From a bacterium (GTDB lineage: Bacteria; Zhuqueibacterota; Zhuqueibacteria; Residuimicrobiales; Krinioviventaceae), in the NCBI GenBank assembly GCA_963674595.2, contig CAXXFV010000023.1, positions 768,001 through 832,000 of the forward strand: a stretch of DNA of 64,000 nucleotides, in the 5' to 3' direction. Shown one piece after another: positions 4,491 through 17,356 of the stretch (position 1 is the first letter of the stretch; each line of letters opens with the position of its first letter). Below the pieces are notes generated by a model. The model made no database searches. It had not been told where the DNA came from and saw only the letters and a program-made list of their open reading frames with translations. The position numbers and the translations under genes are program-made.

Positions 4491-5009
4491 TCAGGAATCC
4501 CTCTGTTTCTTTTTATTACCGTTTTTTTTGAGTTTTTCCAGAATCTTCTGTTCTACAAAATCAGGAACAAGCCCCTCCACCGATCCTCCAAGCGCCACAA
4601 CCTCCTTCACCTGGCTGGAACTCAGGTAGGTATACTCAGAGGAAGGCATCAGGAAGATTGTTTCAACTTCTCTCTCCAGTCGCCGGTTCATCAGCGCCAG
4701 CTGAAACTCATAATCAAAATCTGTCACTGCCCGCAGGCCTCTTATGACAACACCGGCTTTCTTCTCCTTGGCAAAATTAACCAGAAGGCCGTCAAAACGT
4801 GCCACCTCAACATTGTCAAACGGTTTGATAGCCAGGGCCAGCATTTCAGCCCTCTCGGCCGCACTAAAAAAAGGATCCTTTCGTTCATTTTTAAGTACAG
4901 CTACAATAACCTTGCTGAAAATCCGGCTTCCCCTCTGGATTATGTCCAAATGCCCGTTGGTAACAGGATCAAATGAACCTGGATAGATTGCGACACCCGC
5001 TTTATTCAT
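4491..5009 (-). CDS. coaD: Phosphopantetheine adenylyltransferase
   Basis: YPGSFDPVTNGH, RGLRAVTDFDYE, SSSQVKE. Confidence 0.98.
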   Translation of the reverse strand: MNKAGVAIYPGSFDPVTNGHLDIIQRGSRIFSKVIVAVLKNERKDPFFSAAERAEMLALAIKPFDNVEVARFDGLLVNFAKEKKAGVVIRGLRAVTDFDYEFQLALMNRRLEREVETIFLMPSSEYTYLSSSQVKEVVALGGSVEGLVPDFVEQKILEKLKKNGNKKKQRDS

Positions 5010-5241
5010 ATTTTTACTTTTTCCCTGCTCCGCCAGTTAACGGCTACTTGCACAATTTATACTTGAGAGGTTCTCTGTCACAGAGCCTGTATCCGCAGGC
5101 TTACCGATCTATTATAACCATTCTCTCTGTAACCTGAATTATTTTCGAACCGTGATCTGCCAAGCCCGCTTAAAAAAACCTTGACGGAGATATAATCTGC
5201 TGAGAGAATTTAAATGCTCACCCGGTATTCTTCAGGGGCTA

Positions 5242-5883
5242 TTGTGCCCGAACGCCTCTATTACGACAAAACGTATTTTTGTGCTTAGAGATAAGGTTTG
5301 GGAAGAAAATCAACGTCTCTTCCGATCAATTGTTTTTGCTATTGTCAGAAACCCGGCTGACATTGAAGACGTCCTCCAGGAAACATACCGGAGAATCCTT
5401 AAAACACCCTCCCAAATAACCAGTCGGGAAGAAGCGTTTTATTACCTCAAAAAAAGTGTCCGGAACACGGCTATCGACTGGAACAGGAAGTCATTCAGGA
5501 GAAACCTCACGGTCAAGGAACAGGTTTCAGACTACGACAGGCTGGAAGAATTACATTCATCAGGAGACAGTCCACTTTCTCAACTGCTGGAAGAAGAGAG
5601 AAAACAGTCTTACGCTGATTTCATCAGTGAAGTGTACCTAGCCATGGATGAACTCCCTGAAAAGCAGCGAGAGGCGGTAAAAGCATTTTTCTCGGTTAGG
5701 GGCGCTCCGTCTCCGAAAGAACTCTGCGCTATTAAAAACATTCCCTATTCAACGCTGCGGAGCAGGATGGTCAAAGGGATCGACTCAATCAGGGACATCC
5801 TGTCTAAAAAAAATATACCCGGTTTCGCTAAAGCCATTTCTGAAACGTTATTAAAGAAAACAGAAAAGAGCGCAGTTAAATGA
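5242..5883 (+). CDS. ECF-type RNA polymerase sigma factor (start uncertain; GTG at 5281 is possible)
   Basis: Region 2 DIEDVLQETY...RNTAIDWNRK; region 4 LPEKQREAV...STLRSRMVKG. Confidence 0.88.
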   Translation: MCPNASITTKRIFVLRDKVWEENQRLFRSIVFAIVRNPADIEDVLQETYRRILKTPSQITSREEAFYYLKKSVRNTAIDWNRKSFRRNLTVKEQVSDYDRLEELHSSGDSPLSQLLEEERKQSYADFISEVYLAMDELPEKQREAVKAFFSVRGAPSPKELCAIKNIPYSTLRSRMVKGIDSIRDILSKKNIPGFAKAISETLLKKTEKSAVK

Positions 5884-6563
5884 AATGTACTGATATTTTG
5901 CTTTACGAGTATCTCTCCGGCAATTTAAATCCGGAAGAGGCAGAAAAAACAGCCGCGCACCTGGAGGAGTGCCCGGAATGCAGGGAGAAATTCAAAATCA
6001 TGGTAGCCCTGGACAATCCGCGGATGCCGTCCCTGCAAAAAAAATCGAACAGGTTCATCCCTGCCGGGAGAAATCTGCGACTCGCTGCTGCCGGGCTGCT
6101 CCTGGCTGTTGTCCTTTCCATTTTGTACAGCCAGCTTCCAACTGACTGCGGTTTTCCGGCCAGCAGTACCCTGGCAACCAGCCAGCCCTATCCCCTGGTT
6201 ATGCTGGAGACCAGGAACAGCAGCGGGGCCGGTCTCACCAGGGGACTCCATCTTTACCGGGAGGGGAGCTATCGGGAGGCTCTGGCCGAACTGGAGCAAT
6301 ATGAAGAAAACCATGACGCCCTGTTCTTTTCTGCCATATCCCTGTACATGCTTGATGAACCGGTAAAAGCTTTAGAAAAGTTAAAACGGCTAGCCGTAGT
6401 TTCTGAAAAATGGGCTTTCGCTGCTGACTGGTACCGTTCCCAGTCCCTGCTGAAGCTTGGGAAAACCGACGAAGCAGTTTCTGTTCTGAAAAAAATCTCC
6501 GAAACCGAAAACCAATACCGAAAGCAGGCACTTGAACTTATAAAAAAACTGGAAGAACAATGA
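5880..6563 (+). CDS. Zinc-finger (zf-HC2/ZAS) anti-sigma factor with one TM helix and a C-terminal TPR-like domain
   Basis: HLEECPECR = HxxxCxxC; hydrophobic helix LAAAGLLLAVVLSIL; helical repeats; ATGA overlaps with both neighbours. Confidence 0.85.
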   Translation: MKCTDILLYEYLSGNLNPEEAEKTAAHLEECPECREKFKIMVALDNPRMPSLQKKSNRFIPAGRNLRLAAAGLLLAVVLSILYSQLPTDCGFPASSTLATSQPYPLVMLETRNSSGAGLTRGLHLYREGSYREALAELEQYEENHDALFFSAISLYMLDEPVKALEKLKRLAVVSEKWAFAADWYRSQSLLKLGKTDEAVSVLKKISETENQYRKQALELIKKLEEQ

Positions 6564-9091
6564 CAGGGGAAAATTTCTTGCTGTTTCTCGCCGTTTCAAT
6601 TCTACTCTTGTCCGGGTTTTGCCTGGCCGGAGAATCTGAAATATGCAGTTTCAGGAACGACCCTCTCTGTTTCCACGAAAACATGAGAAGAAGAGCAATG
6701 GAAGGGATGGACAACCGGGCCGTGCTGGAGAATCTCCATACCGAGTTCCTGGAACACTCCTTTGATGGGCTGTTAAAAAGCCACCCCAAAGGGAACGCAG
6801 GATTTATTCTCCTTTACAGTGCCTGGGTTCGCTGGAATGAATCCAGGCAAGACGAAGCACTGCAGTACTACACTATAGCCAGGCGGGTATTCCGGGAGGC
6901 GGGCATGGCAAGCGAGTCCCGTTTCTGCCTTTATTACATGGCTCGGATTGCCGCTGAACAGGAAAAGTTTTCGGAAAGTATAAACCTTCTGAAACAGGCT
7001 CTTGCTGAAGGAACAGCAGTCAACGCGCCTTACCTGGAAGGCCTGGTTAATGAAAGCCTGGGTTACGCGTTATGGTATATGGACAGGCTGCCGGAGAGCG
7101 CGGAATCCTTCGGCAGATCGGCTGAGCTGTGGCTCCGGATCGGGTATAAACCAGGAATGGTCAACTGCTGGAGCAACCTCGGTTTGCTTTTCCAGGAACT
7201 GGACCTGCCGGACCAGGCCTGGAGAGCATATGAAAACGCCATCAATTGCCTGCAGGAAGATACCTTCCCGGAAATCAAGTTCCTCCTTTATCGCAACTGC
7301 GCCCTATTCCATTATCGTAATAATCACCAGGAACTTGCTTCTTACTACCTCCTCAACTGCCGGGAATTCAGGGAGTGTGATGAAACTCTCTATATCCTTG
7401 CCAAAGCTGAAATACTGGAACAGCCTGAGCTGCTTATTTCCTTGAATCCCGAGATTCCATCCATGGTTTTTATCAGGGACCTCCTCCTTGCCAAGTTTCA
7501 AAAAAAAGAGGGCAATATCAGTGAGGCCATCGGCCTGATCAGGAAGGTAATAAAAGAAAGCCAGTCATTAAACATGCCGAGGCATACCCGGGAGGCGCGC
7601 CTTTCGCTGGCGGAAATCATGGTAGAGCATGGATCAGCGGATGAAGCAAGGAAGCTATTCCAGCAGTCCCTGAATGAGAGTACCTACCTCAACAGTATAG
7701 ATATTCTCCTCCCCTTTTCCAATTCATCAGAGCGGCAGTTGAATGGCCTGATACGCTGCCTGGTCAGAAGCGGAAAGATACGCGAGGCCCGGTCTTCCAT
7801 ACAGGAGGCAGCATCACTCAAAACCCGAAAAGGCAGACTGTTTCTTCGCAGCCTGAAGAACCAGTCCAAGTCCGATTCAAACAGGCTCCTCAACAGGGCG
7901 GTAATGAAAATGGAAGGGAAAACTGATTTCAAGCTCGGTCTTACCTCCGAACCTGTGTGCCCGCCTGCTGGTGTCACTATGATAGAGTTCTGGCCTGATG
8001 GGAAAGAATTATTTGTGTGGATTGACAATCCCCGCAGTCATTACTTTCTGCAGCTGGAGCTGAATGACTGGATCGGGGATATCATTCGCAGGCTAACATC
8101 TTCTCTCTATTCCCAGGAACCCTTCCTTCCCCCTGAACCTTCCGGTGAAATTTCAATAAGTCTTTACCGTCAACTATTCCAGCCGATGGAACATCTCATT
8201 GCAAATAAACGACTCCTGCTAATAGCCCATAAAGAGCTGCAGTCCCTGCCTTTTGAAATGCTGCAGCCATGCCCGGGTAATTACCTCCTGGAAAAATACA
8301 CCTTCAGTTACCTTCCGGGACGGCATTACCATTGCCGGACTGAGGAAATAACCCAGCCGCCTCTGCTGATCCAGCCTTCCGGATTCAGCAGCAGGGCGGG
8401 AGCTGCCGGGGAACTTGAATTCCTGCAGTCGATCCACCCTGGCCTTAAAACACTGGAGTCTCTTGATATCAGGACTCCCTTGACCGCCAGCCTGATCCAT
8501 ATAACATCACATCTAAAACTGGACCGTAGGTACTGGCTCAATTCCGCCCTTGCCAGCGAAAATTACTCAAAATCAATGGCTGATCTATTTAAACAGGAGA
8601 TGAGATGCAACCTGCTCTCCCTGGGTGTCTGCGAATCTGCCAATTCAGCTACCTCGGCTTCCCCTTACTGGATGGGATTTTCAGAAATGTTCATGCTAAA
8701 CGGAGCAAATACCCTCCTGACCAGTAGATGGAGGATGGACGAACTTTCATCTCATATCTACACTGAATTTTTTAAATTGTGCAGGGATGGTATGGCCATG
8801 GATGAGGCTCTCAGGAAATCCAGGTTAAAATTCCTGAAACCGGAGAAATATGGATTGCCGCCACAGGCCGCTCACCCCTTCTACTGGGCCGGAATCACGT
8901 ACGTCGGAGAACCGGGAAGGATGCTTTCTTTCCCCGTAAAGAATAAAAACAGTGCAGGTATTGTCCCGGTTATCTTTTGGTTAACCCTGCTGGCGGCTGC
9001 CCTATTCAGGGATAAGTGGGCTTTTTGTGCCAGGAGGATATTAGGCGCATTGAAGGCAATGCAAGATTCAAGAGTCAAGATTCAAGATTAG
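6560..9091 (+). CDS. TPR + CHAT (caspase-HetF family) protein with signal peptide and C-terminal TM helix
   Basis: TPRs (WSNLGLLFQEL); LQSLPFEML; IHITSH and LSLGVCES carry the putative His/Cys dyad; LTSRWRMDE; HPFYWAG. Confidence 0.85.
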   Translation: MTGENFLLFLAVSILLLSGFCLAGESEICSFRNDPLCFHENMRRRAMEGMDNRAVLENLHTEFLEHSFDGLLKSHPKGNAGFILLYSAWVRWNESRQDEALQYYTIARRVFREAGMASESRFCLYYMARIAAEQEKFSESINLLKQALAEGTAVNAPYLEGLVNESLGYALWYMDRLPESAESFGRSAELWLRIGYKPGMVNCWSNLGLLFQELDLPDQAWRAYENAINCLQEDTFPEIKFLLYRNCALFHYRNNHQELASYYLLNCREFRECDETLYILAKAEILEQPELLISLNPEIPSMVFIRDLLLAKFQKKEGNISEAIGLIRKVIKESQSLNMPRHTREARLSLAEIMVEHGSADEARKLFQQSLNESTYLNSIDILLPFSNSSERQLNGLIRCLVRSGKIREARSSIQEAASLKTRKGRLFLRSLKNQSKSDSNRLLNRAVMKMEGKTDFKLGLTSEPVCPPAGVTMIEFWPDGKELFVWIDNPRSHYFLQLELNDWIGDIIRRLTSSLYSQEPFLPPEPSGEISISLYRQLFQPMEHLIANKRLLLIAHKELQSLPFEMLQPCPGNYLLEKYTFSYLPGRHYHCRTEEITQPPLLIQPSGFSSRAGAAGELEFLQSIHPGLKTLESLDIRTPLTASLIHITSHLKLDRRYWLNSALASENYSKSMADLFKQEMRCNLLSLGVCESANSATSASPYWMGFSEMFMLNGANTLLTSRWRMDELSSHIYTEFFKLCRDGMAMDEALRKSRLKFLKPEKYGLPPQAAHPFYWAGITYVGEPGRMLSFPVKNKNSAGIVPVIFWLTLLAAALFRDKWAFCARRILGALKAMQDSRVKIQD
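9060..9090 (+). repeat. Heptamer array (TTCAAGA)n forming the 3' end of the CHAT ORF
   Basis: tgcaaga ttcaaga gtcaaga ttcaaga tt. Confidence 0.8.
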
Positions 9092-12236: not shown

Positions 12237-12803
12237 GTGCAAATCCGAAAATTTTTAATGATTACTCTTTTCCTGTTACTGGCTTCCTGCGGCCGAAGCA
12301 TTGAAAAACAGGCCCGGGACCAGGTAAGGAAGCTCAGCAACGCAGACCTGGAGAAAAAACAGGTATCAGTGTTCAATGTCAGCCAGATGGGTGACACCGC
12401 GACAGCGGAAATAGATATCCATACAGCTGTAAAAATGAGCAAAGAAGATGGCAAGTGGCTGATTAAAGAAATTCGCCTGGGCAGTGAGAAATGGGAAGAC
12501 GTCCACAGAATAGTCGGGGCGATTGAACAGATAAGAGCAGAAGATACCATGGCTGACATGAAAACAATAAGAGATGCGGTTGAAGCATACAGTAAAGAAA
12601 AAGGCCCCCTGGAACTTGAAATAAATTTTGTAACCTTGATTGATCTTTTGGCTCCCGAATATCTGCCTAATCCAATCCGAGAAGACGCGTGGGACAATCC
12701 GTTCACCCTGCTGGTGACAAAAGAAGGCTTTCAGATCAGATCCGCCGGACCGGACGGAAAATCTGGAAGCAGAGATGACCTGGTATTAAACAATGAAAAT
12801 TAA
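12237..12803 (+). CDS. Putative lipoprotein with a type II secretion GspG-like C-terminal domain
   Basis: Lipobox LLLASC; C-terminal DAWDNPF...IRSAGPDGKSGSRDDL matches the GspG tail; no prepilin leader. Confidence 0.7.
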   Translation: MQIRKFLMITLFLLLASCGRSIEKQARDQVRKLSNADLEKKQVSVFNVSQMGDTATAEIDIHTAVKMSKEDGKWLIKEIRLGSEKWEDVHRIVGAIEQIRAEDTMADMKTIRDAVEAYSKEKGPLELEINFVTLIDLLAPEYLPNPIREDAWDNPFTLLVTKEGFQIRSAGPDGKSGSRDDLVLNNEN

Positions 12804-13659
12804 AGAAAAATATACATATTTTTATGCCGTTGCAGTTATCCTGCTGGCTCTCATCGGCGCCTCCTGTGCAGGCGGAGATACTGCGACAGGTGAATCAATT
12901 AACTGGCAGCCTGATGTTTACGCGGCTTTTAAAACAGCTGCCCAGGAAAACAAAGACGTACTGCTGTACCTCAATGCTGACTGGTGCGGTTACTGCCGGA
13001 AACTGGAAGCGGAAACTTTCACGGATGCCAAGGTAATAAAAGAACTGGGCGATGCCTTTGTCTGGGTCAAACTGGATGGGGATAAAGATCCGGACGGAAA
13101 CCGCTATAAAAACAAGTTTAATGTCCGTGGTTACCCCGCGATGTTCATCCTTGATCCAGAAGAAAACGAGCTTGACCGTATATCCGGATATCTCCCTCCC
13201 GAGAATTTCCTGGAGATGATGATTTCCATGCGCGACGGCAACACTTTTGCCGGGCTTCAGGAGAGAGTTAAAGAGAATCCGGATGACATGAAAGCCAAAC
13301 AAAAACTTGCTGAAAAACTGCTTTTCAGAGGCCAGCCGGGAGATTCCCTGAAAAACCTGGAGATGGTACTTAAAGCTGATCCTGATAACGAACAAGGACA
13401 GATGGAACCGGCCTTGTATTTAATGGCCCAGGCGACTTATGCCATGCGCCAGTATCAGCCGACTCTCGCTGTCCTGGATAAATACGAAGAAAAATTTCCG
13501 GATGGCACACATATTGCCGATTTCATGTTGCTCAGGGCCCAGTTAAACCTTGAAAATAATGAGAGCGAATCCGCCCGGTCCACGCTGGAAAAATTCCTCA
13601 AAGCATATCCCCATCATCCCAAGGCTGAACTTGTGAGACGCCACCTGTCCGAAAATTAG
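12793..13659 (+). CDS. Thioredoxin-fold lipoprotein with C-terminal TPR repeats
   Basis: Lipobox LIGASC; ADWCGYC active site; VRGYP cis-Pro loop; YbgF-like TPR tail. Confidence 0.85.
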   Translation: MKIKEKYTYFYAVAVILLALIGASCAGGDTATGESINWQPDVYAAFKTAAQENKDVLLYLNADWCGYCRKLEAETFTDAKVIKELGDAFVWVKLDGDKDPDGNRYKNKFNVRGYPAMFILDPEENELDRISGYLPPENFLEMMISMRDGNTFAGLQERVKENPDDMKAKQKLAEKLLFRGQPGDSLKNLEMVLKADPDNEQGQMEPALYLMAQATYAMRQYQPTLAVLDKYEEKFPDGTHIADFMLLRAQLNLENNESESARSTLEKFLKAYPHHPKAELVRRHLSEN

Positions 13660-14998: not shown

Positions 14999-15427
14999 AT
15001 GGAAGAAAACAATATACCCACCCCGCCAGGAACGCCACCCGAAACACCACCTCAAACTCCTCCTGTAAATACACCTCCTCCACCAGGAGGCGGCGCAGGA
15101 TATGTATCTCCGAACCGTACTATTATGCTCATACTGGCCTATCTCAGCGTTCTGGCGCTGATTCCGCTTCTTACCGAAAAGGAAGACAAGGAAATTCAGT
15201 GGCATTCCAAGAATGGTTTGGTAATCACAGCAGCCTGGATAATCCTTGCTATTGCCTTAACGATCCTGGGTTTTATTCCCATTGTTGGACAGGTTCTTGG
15301 TTGTTTGGCCATGCCGTTTATAGGCCTTGGCGGGTTGATAGTATTTATTTTATGTATCGTCAAAGCCCTCAACGGAGAACGTTTCCGCCTTCCCATGGTT
15401 TCTGACTATGCAGATAAATGGCAGTAG
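14999..15427 (+). CDS. DUF4870-like membrane protein with Pro-rich N-terminus
   Basis: LAYL...IQWHSKNGL...IVKALNGERFRLP pattern; about 3 TM segments. Confidence 0.75.
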   Translation: MEENNIPTPPGTPPETPPQTPPVNTPPPPGGGAGYVSPNRTIMLILAYLSVLALIPLLTEKEDKEIQWHSKNGLVITAAWIILAIALTILGFIPIVGQVLGCLAMPFIGLGGLIVFILCIVKALNGERFRLPMVSDYADKWQ

Positions 15428-15451
15428 ACTGACTGACTCGAAATGAACAGA

Positions 15452-15489
15452 CAGGGGGTAACCAGATGTTAATCCTGATTATCCCCCTG
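15452..15489 (+). terminator. Stem-loop downstream of the DUF4870 gene
   Basis: cagggggtaa...ttatccccctg imperfect inverted repeat; no strong U-tract. Confidence 0.35.
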
Positions 15490-15523
15490 GACCCAGCCCG
15501 CAATCCCTTCCATCGGGCCTGAA

Positions 15524-15913
15524 ATGAACATCAGAGAGATGCTCAAAACCAATAAAAAAGCCCGTATCCTACTCGTGGGCTCAGCCCTTTTCCTGCTGCT
15601 GGCCGGATTAACTGCAACTGATATACCGCTGCGTTACGAAATCAGGCTGATCCATTTTTACAAGTCTCATGTTTCCCCCGTTTCCAGTCATTTTGTGACT
15701 TGCCGATTCAGTCCTACCTGATCCAGCTATGCCCTCCTGGTCCTGGAGGCTGACGGATTTTGGCTGGGGAATCTGAAAATCACCGGCCGGCTGCTCAGGT
15801 GTTCAGCCTTCGGATTCGTGTGGGACGCCTTGTTTTCAGAAAAACAGAAGGAACAAAAGCAAACCGGGATTAGCTGTTTATTATTCAGGGAATTTTCACA
15901 CCGGCTATCATAA
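15524..15913 (+). CDS. yidD: YidD-family protein with in-frame UGA (15719-15721) at the conserved Cys; probable selenoprotein (129 aa with readthrough)
   Basis: LIHFYKSHVSP...CRFSPT*SSYALLVLEADGFWLG...RLLRCSAF aligns to the YidD pattern CRFxPTCSxY...RILRC on both sides of the stop; frame stays open to TAA 15911-15913; SECIS-like hairpin follows. Confidence 0.75.
15722..15757 (+). promoter_or_regulatory. Candidate bacterial SECIS element
   Basis: Directly after the UGA: upper stem CCTCC/GGAGG closing loop TGGTCCT that starts 16 nt after the UGA; lower pairing TCC/GGA and AG/CT. Confidence 0.6.
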
Positions 15914-16057
15914 TGTCTAAATCCATATCACTTGCATCCACAACAATTAATGGACCGTCCCCTTTTAACTACCCGGCAAGGGCTTTCTTCCCGGCACCTT
16001 GCCCTGTAGACTGAATATTCGCGTGTGTTGACTATCAGGCAGTTTACTGCAAATATT

Positions 16058-17356
16058 ATGGACATGGTTTGGTACAAAAAACTGCACTGGCAGATTATTA
16101 TCGGGCTGGTTCTCGGACTGATATACGGGGCATTGGCAGCATCCATCGGCCTGCAGAAATTCACTGCCGACTGGATTGCTCCTTTTGGCACAATATTCAT
16201 AAATCTCCTCAAACTGATTGCGGTTCCCCTGGTACTTGCTTCCCTGATATGCGGAGTTGCTTCCCTTTCCGATCTAAAAAAACTCTCAAGAATCGGGGGA
16301 AAAACAATCCTCATATACATGGCCACCACTGTTATTTCAGTTTCTATCGGGCTGACACTGGTGAATATTCTCAAACCAGGACACTATGTCCCACCGGAGA
16401 TGCGGGAGCAGCTGCAGCAAACCTACGAAAAAGATGCCGCCAGCCAGACTGACCTGGCCAGGCAGGCCAGGGAGAGAGGCCCGCTGCAGCCCCTGGTCGA
16501 TATTGTTCCCTCCAACCTTTTTGATTCCGCTTCTGATAACAGGAACATGCTGCAGATTGTGTTCATCGCGCTGCTGGCGGGGATTGCCCTGATCCAACTG
16601 GAAGACAGTCAAAGCAGGCCTTTACTTGAATTTTTCAGTTCCCTTAACGAAGTCATTATCAGGATTGTTGACATAATAATGCTGATGGCTCCGCTGGGGG
16701 TATTCGCCCTCATATCAGGAACCATCACTTCCATTGCCGAAGAAAACATCATGCAGGTGGTCAACCTGCTCGGGGCCCTCGGGTACTATTGCTTCGCGGT
16801 TGTTCTCGGATTGATGATCCAGGGATACGTAACCTATTCAATTATGCTCAAGCTCTTTACCCCTATGCCGCTGGGACGCTTTTTCAAGGGGATAGCCCCG
16901 GTTCAGCTGGTGGCATTCTCAACCAGTTCCAGCGGGGCCACCCTTCCGGTCACCATGGAAAAATGCCAGGATGAACTGGGAGTTTCAGACGAAATATCCT
17001 CTTTTGTGCTTCCCCTGGGAGCGACCATCAACATGGACGGTACCGCTCTTTACCAGGCTGTGGCCGCAGTTTTTATTGCCCAGGCCCTGGGTATGGAACT
17101 TTCTCTCTCAGCCCAGCTGGTAATCATCCTGACAGCTGTACTGGCCTCCATAGGAACAGCAGCCGTGCCCAGTGCGGGAATTATAATGCTGGTTATAATC
17201 CTGGAAGCCATTGGCGTTCCCAGCGCGGGGATTGCCCTGATCCTGGGAGTGGACCGTATCCTGGATATGCTGAGAACTGTAACCAACGTGACCGGGGACA
17301 GCTGTGTTGCCGTGCTTATAGCCTCATCAGAAGGACAGCTGGACCAGGAGGATTAA
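16058..17356 (+). CDS. Dicarboxylate/amino acid:cation symporter (GltP/DAACS family)
   Basis: AFSTSSSGATLP, LPLGATINMDGT, VDRILDMLRT; start at ATG 16058 or 16064. Confidence 0.95.
   Translation: MDMVWYKKLHWQIIIGLVLGLIYGALAASIGLQKFTADWIAPFGTIFINLLKLIAVPLVLASLICGVASLSDLKKLSRIGGKTILIYMATTVISVSIGLTLVNILKPGHYVPPEMREQLQQTYEKDAASQTDLARQARERGPLQPLVDIVPSNLFDSASDNRNMLQIVFIALLAGIALIQLEDSQSRPLLEFFSSLNEVIIRIVDIIMLMAPLGVFALISGTITSIAEENIMQVVNLLGALGYYCFAVVLGLMIQGYVTYSIMLKLFTPMPLGRFFKGIAPVQLVAFSTSSSGATLPVTMEKCQDELGVSDEISSFVLPLGATINMDGTALYQAVAAVFIAQALGMELSLSAQLVIILTAVLASIGTAAVPSAGIIMLVIILEAIGVPSAGIALILGVDRILDMLRTVTNVTGDSCVAVLIASSEGQLDQED

Follow-up and report, generated by a model that had tools for sequence, protein, structure and literature searches.

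Is a small bacterial gene of the YidD family, in which a UGA codon takes the place of a conserved cysteine (Cys), a broken gene or a gene for a selenoprotein? The question is raised by a gene at positions 15524-15913 of a 64,000-nucleotide (nt) stretch of bacterial DNA (positions 768,001 to 832,000 of contig CAXXFV010000023.1, assembly GCA_963674595.2), which was analysed as a whole and is called the window in the following. From the comparison of related sequences we conclude, with a probability of roughly 0.88, that this is a genuine selenoprotein gene whose UGA codon 66 is decoded as selenocysteine (Sec, U). Such a decoding, with a resulting C-x5-U site, had been put forward in the original prediction and is supported by a conserved TGA, purifying selection, an exchange of Cys and Sec at the same position and a conserved hairpin. 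The gene has the following parts:

15524..15913, + strand: candidate YidD-like selenoprotein gene, 129 codons with UGA as codon 66, then TAA
15524-15838, + strand: conserved core of the gene, codons 1-105, from orthologue alignments
15554..15616, + strand: hydrophobic N-terminal helix, presumed membrane anchor, codons 11-31, from an AlphaFold2 helix and the hydrophobic sequence
15719..15721, + strand: in-frame UGA, proposed Sec codon (U66), where the YidD motif has its second invariant Cys
15839..15913, + strand: C-terminal tail, codons 106-129 plus stop, conserved in the closest relative only

Starting with the ATG at 15524, the open reading frame covers 65 amino acids (aa), ends with ...TCRFSPT and is closed by the TGA at 15719-15721. 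Behind this codon the same frame stays open up to the TAA at 15911-15913, which gives 129 codons if the TGA is read through and agrees with the coordinates proposed before. For profile comparisons we substituted C for U. The read-through protein then matched the Pfam family YidD (PF01809; E 7e-16, 58.2 bits, cut-off 27, residues 40-96) and the NCBIfam model TIGR00278 (54.6 bits, cut-off 40), and no selenoprotein model among the NCBIfam models matched it. Its three conserved Cys positions are C60, U66 (the UGA) and C93, with a C60-x5-U66 spacing. All three columns are invariant in 56 aligned sequences, in line with the earlier statement that the TGA occupies the second conserved Cys and that the downstream half with the third Cys is intact. 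The extra hydrophobic helix at the N-terminus, which had also been noticed, is predicted at residues 11-31 and would act as a membrane anchor. The 24-residue C-terminal tail (codons 106-129) is common only to the window and the related genome G197; the other orthologues stop at codon 106.

The strongest argument comes from orthologous loci. TGA is present at codon 66 in 6/6 orthologous DNA sequences (the window and five others), which represent about four lineages, and the frame behind it is open in all five orthologues with neither a frameshift nor a further stop. The orthologues are located as follows:

L056 and L057: orthologue loci on Joint Genome Institute (JGI) metagenome contigs
L059 (identical with L073): orthologue locus in a metagenome-assembled genome (MAG) labelled Acidobacteriota, G061
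L074: orthologue locus in genome G197
L075: orthologue locus in genome G198

Their DNA identity to the window amounts to 88%, about 67-78%, about 69-75% and about 72-78%. Between the window and L056, the ratio of nonsynonymous to synonymous substitution rates (dN/dS) is 0.144 for codons 67-105 behind the TGA (synonymous rate dS 1.14) and 0.137 for codons 30-65 in front of it (dS 2.3). The downstream part is therefore as constrained as the upstream part, which excludes a pseudogene as well as a sequencing error. Since the genes at L056, L057 and L059 use TGA as their ordinary stop (codon 106), TGA is not reassigned genome-wide. Truncated proteins that fit the same pattern are also found in public collections: the N-terminal 65 residues as query retrieved P0003, P0004 and P0005 (60-65 aa; 95%, 77% and 77% identity), all ending with ...TCRF[SN]PT, and a profile search of 1.84 billion representatives added P0053 and P0057, which also end at the Sec column. 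In contrast to the Sec forms, a true pseudogene of the Cys-form subfamily (L104; G150:C2:672400-673200, - strand) has its TGA at the Arg codon after the first Cys, lacks the hydrophobic N-terminus and shows decayed GN and RL motifs.

We also asked if the base itself is real, by placing Logan contigs of four public runs (contigs, not raw reads) on positions 15400-16100. In run X1, which may be the source sample, two contigs span 15719-15721 with zero differences. In run X4, a marine sediment metagenome from another study, a 218-nt contig covers 15713-15930 with 2 differences, neither of them in the TGA. Hence the sequencing error that had been considered initially finds no support in these contigs, including one of independent origin. 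Two further versions of the locus, diverged to about 80% and about 96% identity, also occur in run X1, so that several related strains or species are present in the sample. They are represented by a 6004-nt contig, which shows 63 differences to the window over 15514-15838, and a 160-nt contig, which shows 7 over 15583-15742. The version at about 80% identity lacks 15839-16025 (it jumps from 15838 to 16026), and among the differences listed for the diverged contigs none lies within 15698-15753.

The counterpart of the conserved TGA is a conserved Cys. With the read-through query we found P0002, a protein of 105 aa that is 66% identical and carries Cys at the Sec column (CRFNPTCSSYAL). All homologues read at this column have Cys, namely P0002, 29 loci and 52 aligned proteins, and the codon is TGY (TGC or TGT) in 29/29 Cys-form loci. 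TGA in the orthologues next to Cys in the homologues is the pattern that the original prediction had named as a check. According to the profile search, the subfamily consists of roughly 55 clusters at E < 1e-10, nearly all with Cys at the Sec column, and combines the YidD core with a hydrophobic helix at the N-terminus and the motifs G-F-W-x-G-N and C-S-P-x-G. The only invariant residues in the 56-sequence alignment are Y46, C60, C66 (the Sec column), L74, C93 and G97. In the class containing G061, the subfamily occurs in 54/137 genomes at E <= 1e-12. We read 33 of the 55 match rows as sequence, which gave 3 Sec forms, 29 Cys forms and 1 pseudogene; the remaining 22 were reported without internal stops, their sequences not being inspected. 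Look-alikes of P0002 in the ESM Atlas are YidD clusters, with Acidobacteriota as the commonest known phylum. A maximum-likelihood tree computed from 35 core sequences groups the five Sec forms with P0002, a Cys form, in a single clade (support 86/91) whose interior is unresolved. This pattern fits one origin of Sec from Cys and possibly one reversion. A clade-restricted Sec form within a mostly Cys-containing family is the usual picture for a selenoprotein family.

A bacterial selenoprotein gene is expected to carry a selenocysteine insertion sequence (SECIS) directly behind the UGA, and a candidate hairpin is present at this position:

15720..15759, + strand: SECIS-like hairpin, 40-nt element, from the consensus fold of the Sec forms
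15720-15724 with 15755-15759, + strand: lower stem, from the consensus fold
15733-15737 (CCTCC) with 15745-15749 (GGAGG), + strand: upper stem, 5 base pairs (bp)
15738-15744, + strand: apical loop, UGGUCCU, 7 nt

In the consensus fold of the Sec forms, GAUCC, which starts inside the UGA, pairs with GGAUU 35 nt downstream; the distance from the UGA to the loop is 16 nt in the window. A model of bacterial SECIS elements describes an apical loop of 3-9 nt, an upper stem of 4-16 bp, a spacing of 16-37 nt, a G in the first two loop positions with G or U as the usual next base, and a minimum free energy <= -7.5 kcal/mol (as given in PMC13188914). The window hairpin satisfies this model with a loop of 7 nt, a stem of 5 bp, a spacing of 16 nt, a G at loop position 2 followed by G, and an energy of -12.3 kcal/mol over 48 nt. 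In the other Sec forms the energies range from -14.5 to -18.6 kcal/mol, and an A-U pair further closes the loop. The SelD genes of G197, G198 and G061 have a similar hairpin whose loop, CGGGU on a 5-bp stem, begins 17 nt behind the UGA.

Across the six Sec sequences, 94.4% of 72 pair cells are standard pairs, compared with <= 61% if the register is slid, and one pair is compensatory (C-G, U-A, U-G). Of the six apical stem pairs, 5, 5, 6, 6, 6 and 6 are formed in the Sec forms, whereas the 29 Cys forms reach a median of 3-4 (one pair in 1 locus, two in 3, three in 9, four in 9, five in 5 and six in 2). The stem Leu codons CTC (71) and CTG (74) are unchanged in four Sec lineages, compared with 0/6 invariant columns among the other all-Leu columns; in these lineages the Val codon of the loop varies at its third base (C, T, C and G). 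The different pairing of Sec and Cys forms together with the invariant stem Leu codons speak for a constraint acting on the RNA. Synonymous conservation of codons 67-77 as a block is not elevated (2/8 columns fully identical vs 7/37 elsewhere), the stem positions being the exception.

Decoding of Sec also depends on a dedicated machinery, and here the assembly itself turned out to be misleading. All contigs of the assembly (G000) have a guanine plus cytosine (GC) content of 35-41%. Within the contig of the window (C23, 950,646 nt; window = C23:768001-832000), GC is 33-43% up to about 731 kb and then 47-53% to the end. The switch coincides with a 5S/23S ribosomal RNA (rRNA) operon (G000:C23:727001-735000, L109; 5S 4696-4812, 23S 4893-7846). 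Over 3247 nt the window region shares 88.4% identity with G197, and the last ~220 kb of C23, including the whole window, resemble G197 while the rest of the assembly does not. G197, G198 and G061 all lack a counterpart of the canonical yidD region that the assembly carries on contig C4. Probably, C23 is a chimera whose two parts were joined at the rRNA operon; the acquisition of a very large island is a less likely alternative. Judged by these similarities, the host of the gene is a relative of G197 and not the low-GC organism that forms most of the assembly. G061, labelled Acidobacteriota, is the one titled member of the host's class.

The assembly does hold selA, selB, selD (with its own TGA) and a tRNA-Sec above cut-off, all of them in the low-GC part of the chimera and therefore uninformative on the host of the gene. 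Consequently, the search for selABCD that had been proposed is invalid for the assembly itself, which is chimeric at this contig, but gives a positive answer in G197, G198 and G061. In 3/3 of these TGA-form relatives all four components exceed the curated cut-offs:

selA: G197 518 bits, G198 519 bits, G061 422 bits
selB: G197 366 bits, G198 271 bits, G061 350 bits
selD, one TGA each: G197 358 bits, G198 371 bits, G061 363 bits
tRNA-Sec: G197 73.5 bits, G198 73.5 bits, G061 73.3 bits

The case shows that a chimeric contig can mislead the test of whether a genome has selABCD. The selD genes with one in-frame TGA, found in four genomes (L001 at G000:C4:13190-14113, G197, G198 and G061), are the known Sec-containing selenophosphate synthetase.

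The chimeric assembly also explains why the paralogue is absent from the nominal class, where it occurs in G000 only and in none of 124 other genomes. With 60 nominal relatives included, 58/61 genomes gave matches at E <= 0.01; the best non-self match, 51% identical, is a canonical YidD, and no orthologue was among them. A first profile scan of genome contigs with alignment A1 found no relative either. Several candidates were discarded on inspection: i) an apparent TGA in G003 is positioned upstream of the start of the canonical gene, ii) second YidD-like matches in nominal relatives (L067-L072) are members of other subfamilies, iii) the stops inside the genes of G205 and G209 are natural stop codons, and iv) L060 from Firmicutes has a TAA two codons beyond its TGA. 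Of these, L067-L070 (G008, G034, G022, G042; the assembly's nominal family) represent a different YidD-like paralogue of ~150 aa, unrelated to the Sec subfamily, with a signal-peptide-like N-terminus, a C-x-F-x-x-S-C-S-x-F-G motif and a longer C-terminus. A further observation concerns a canonical YidD at L058 (2130-2164, - strand) in a MAG titled Rubrivivax sp. (G062), directly after the apparent end of rnpA, which has a TGA at the second conserved Cys (CRFEPT-TGA-SRYAL) and an open frame behind it. The search for selB in this MAG of 3.2 Mb gave no match above cut-off (best 108.9 bits), and the TGA could be an error, a sign of a pseudogene or the result of an incomplete bin.

Taken together, comparison shows the two parts of the frame to belong to what should be one translated protein with a recoded UGA. 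The product would be a single YidD-family polypeptide with an N-terminal membrane-anchoring helix. The hairpin just after the UGA, with GGU in an apical loop 16 nt downstream, would recruit SelB together with Sec-tRNA(Sec), so that the ribosome would insert Sec rather than terminate at codon 66. The resulting protein would carry C60-x5-U66 and C93, all three of which are invariant Cys positions in the Cys-form homologues.

A number of observations weigh against this interpretation. No RNA run is among the public runs containing the locus, and P0003, P0004, P0005, P0053 and P0057 are known as protein only, their stop codon being unseen as DNA. The assembly contains just ~220 kb of the actual host, and its Sec machinery is thus readable in relatives only. 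The Sec forms represent one clade, and part of their agreement is inheritance because they are kin. Further points concern the hairpin, which is present as described in the original prediction, meets the model and is kept in all Sec forms but is not significant on its own: the 60-nt stretch of the window folds at -16.8 kcal/mol, which is not unusual (z = 0.27; 121/200 shuffles fold at least as well), and 2/29 Cys forms also make all six pairs. Likewise, the suggested covariation analysis of the six Sec sequences yielded the compensatory pair and the high proportion of standard pairs but no significant covariation (157/500 shuffles reach the observed score), because variation is too small. The codons for the peptide A-L-Q-V-L-E come close to a palindrome, which partly predisposes the sequence to form a hairpin; the same predisposition may be the reason why Sec could evolve at this site. 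Finally, the AlphaFold2 model places U66 and C93 at opposite ends of one predicted helix, so that a three-Cys site within one monomer is not evident.

Among the alternatives, the one that survives best, although we regard it as unlikely, is a read-through of the UGA without Sec. The codon might be read by a near-cognate Cys or Trp tRNA or act as a leaky stop, or termination might be the main outcome, with a functional 65-residue membrane peptide and an occasional extension. It would suit this explanation that the inserted residue is invisible in DNA, that the covariation of the hairpin is weak and that the 65-aa product holds the membrane helix as well as the first Cys. However, it does not account for the invariant Cys at this column in the homologues, which is the signature of a Sec/Cys exchange, nor for the complete Sec machinery in the genomes of all three TGA-form relatives, nor for a hairpin that fits the bacterial SECIS model and resembles the SelD hairpin of the same genomes. 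Besides, a rare product would be a poor explanation for the constraint on the 39 downstream codons, which include the invariant C93 and equal the upstream part in this respect.

Less likely still is a split gene, with residues 1-65 and 67-105 translated separately and assembling afterwards. Gene callers indeed give the 65-aa piece only, but the six Sec sequences show no conserved start codon or spacer after the TGA, where all have the codons TCN-AGY/TCT-TAY-GCN, and both parts lie in one frame without a gap in 6/6 of them. No protein starting at residue 67 is found among the 150 best profile hits, and P0037 and P0114, two short hits to the C-terminal part, either begin before this residue or are fragments of Cys forms (the sequence of P0114 was not inspected). 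A recent nonsense mutation or sequencing error, by which the gene would be a pseudogene of a Cys-form YidD-like gene, is the weakest alternative and effectively refuted because both the TGA and the downstream frame are conserved: even though one base change turns TGY into TGA and there are both a Cys-form relative at 66% identity and a decayed pseudogene of the subfamily in G150, the same-codon TGA recurs in 6 DNA sequences down to about 67-78% DNA identity and in contigs of two other runs, dN/dS after the stop is 0.14 at dS > 1, and there are zero frameshifts or additional stops in any orthologue.

With UGA-directed Sec insertion as the preferred interpretation, the structure and the neighbourhood of the gene allow some insight into a possible function. 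The AlphaFold2 model of residues 1-105, built from the 56-sequence alignment, has a mean predicted local distance difference test (pLDDT) score of 90 and consists of the helices 11-31, 34-54, 66-93 and 95-104. U66 is the first residue of the long helix and C60 is located in the loop before it. There was no sequence match in the PDB and no fold match at E <= 0.001 (best Foldseek E = 6). C60-x5-U66 may form a site at the membrane surface that is redox-active or binds a metal or chalcogen. Sec almost always replaces a chemically active Cys, and for this reason the Cys triad of YidD is most likely an active site, again either redox-active or metal/chalcogen-binding.

The gene is preceded on the same strand by a gene for a second membrane protein:

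14999..15427, + strand: DUF4870 membrane-protein gene, 142 aa, Pfam PF09685, E 4.9e-8, 33.4 bits (cut-off 25)

An SDF symporter gene follows downstream. With these two neighbours the gene indeed stands outside the rnpA-yidD-yidC context, as had been recognized before. A DUF4870 homologue is found directly upstream on the same strand in 28/31 related loci (4/4 Sec and 24/27 Cys forms) and often abuts or overlaps the start of the YidD-like gene; the three loci without it (L082, L084, L085) are close kin of each other. The SDF symporter and ribA are less constant as neighbours. The invariant residues of the DUF4870 partner include E60, D63, H69 and C102. In the representative library, P0028 (457 aa) combines DUF4870 and a Cys-form YidD-like domain in one frame, followed by a long low-complexity tail. 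Whether this joining is genuine or results from an error in frame or assembly, the order of the two genes is thereby seen to be the same in a distant member. From gene order, the YidD-like site probably works together with the DUF4870 protein, and a complex prediction for the two proteins returned a score of 0.00, which gives no verdict for or against binding. To our knowledge, and with no literature search aimed at it, a conserved pairing of DUF4870 and YidD-like genes has not been described. Further upstream, three genes away from the YidD-like gene (window positions 12793-13659, + strand), a 288-aa protein is encoded that has a thioredoxin-like domain (WCGYC), TPR repeats and a lipoprotein-signal-like N-terminus.

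The housekeeping yidD gene has its place in an rnpA-yidD-yidC context. The protein studied here shares with YidD the motif C-R-F-x-P-T-[C/U]-S-x-Y ... R-L-L-R-C with its three conserved Cys positions (the three-Cys motif of YidD, C-[RK]-[FY]-x-P-[ST]-C-S ... R-C, being partly known beforehand and partly read from the profile matches), the small size, a membrane association that is predicted here, and matches to both curated profiles. In contrast to canonical YidD, it bears Sec instead of the second Cys, carries an additional hydrophobic helix at the N-terminus and has G-F-W-x-G-N and C-S-P-x-G in place of the canonical C-terminal end, and its gene follows a DUF4870 gene instead of being adjacent to rnpA or yidC. 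In G061, the Sec paralogue (52.8 bits) is accompanied by a distinct canonical YidD (103 bits, no stop), which bears out the earlier suggestion of a paralogue; the Sec form is not the housekeeping copy. The YidD-like gene is therefore a member of a paralogous subfamily and not a YidD equivalog. YidD itself appears in a review table (PMC8082313, citing Yu et al., 2011) as a SecYEG/YidC-associated factor, the evidence being cross-linking and transport in vitro, and its role in YidC/Sec-dependent membrane protein insertion is, according to the account in PMC8082313, known only from experiments in E. coli.

The textbook example of a selenoprotein gene with a coding-region SECIS is fdhF of E. coli. 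Our candidate resembles bacterial selenoproteins, such as SelD of the same genomes, in having an in-frame UGA aligned to Cys and a hairpin immediately downstream; in having a small apical loop with G-G/U at a distance of 16-37 nt from the UGA, as in the model given in PMC13188914; and in the clade-restricted occurrence of the Sec form within a mostly Cys family. Most families in the main-text table of this 2026 review, which covers > 110 prokaryotic selenoprotein families, are thioredoxin-fold or other soluble redox proteins. In contrast, the protein described here is a small, predicted membrane-anchored helical protein without a fold match in the PDB. Neither YidD, PF01809, TIGR00278, insertase nor YidC appears in the main-text table (PMC13188914; supplementary listings may differ), YidD is absent from the main text of the deep-Sep paper (PMC12013277; supplementary tables may list the family), and full-text literature searches, judged by title or abstract of the papers listed, gave nothing linking YidD with selenium; nothing relevant on YidD and cysteine was among the papers listed either. 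The assumption that YidD is not an established selenoprotein family thus holds for main-text surveys and full-text searches, supplementary tables excepted, and it looks as if this selenoprotein family is absent from published lists so far.

YidD is nearly universal in bacteria, and both its chemistry and the reason for its three conserved cysteines are unexplained. A natural replacement of Cys by Sec is among the best computational flags of a chemically active Cys. If true, the Sec form points at the middle Cys as the functional residue of YidD, giving a direct handle for experiments, and adds a membrane-anchored family without a thioredoxin fold to the bacterial selenoproteome. Public gene calls currently truncate this YidD-like selenoprotein to 60-65 aa. 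Going beyond the subfamily, we tentatively consider, as a rather speculative idea, that the YidD fold could be a thiol/selenol active site at the membrane face (redox or metal/chalcogen), with the middle Cys as the reactive one, rather than a passive “insertion efficiency factor”. Here it might form a two-gene module with the DUF4870 protein, which contributes its own invariant Cys and His, and the change from Cys to Sec might mark the catalytic residue of the whole family, including housekeeping YidD. New selenoprotein families are found regularly; this one would flag the reactive residue of a near-universal protein, together with a conserved partner gene.

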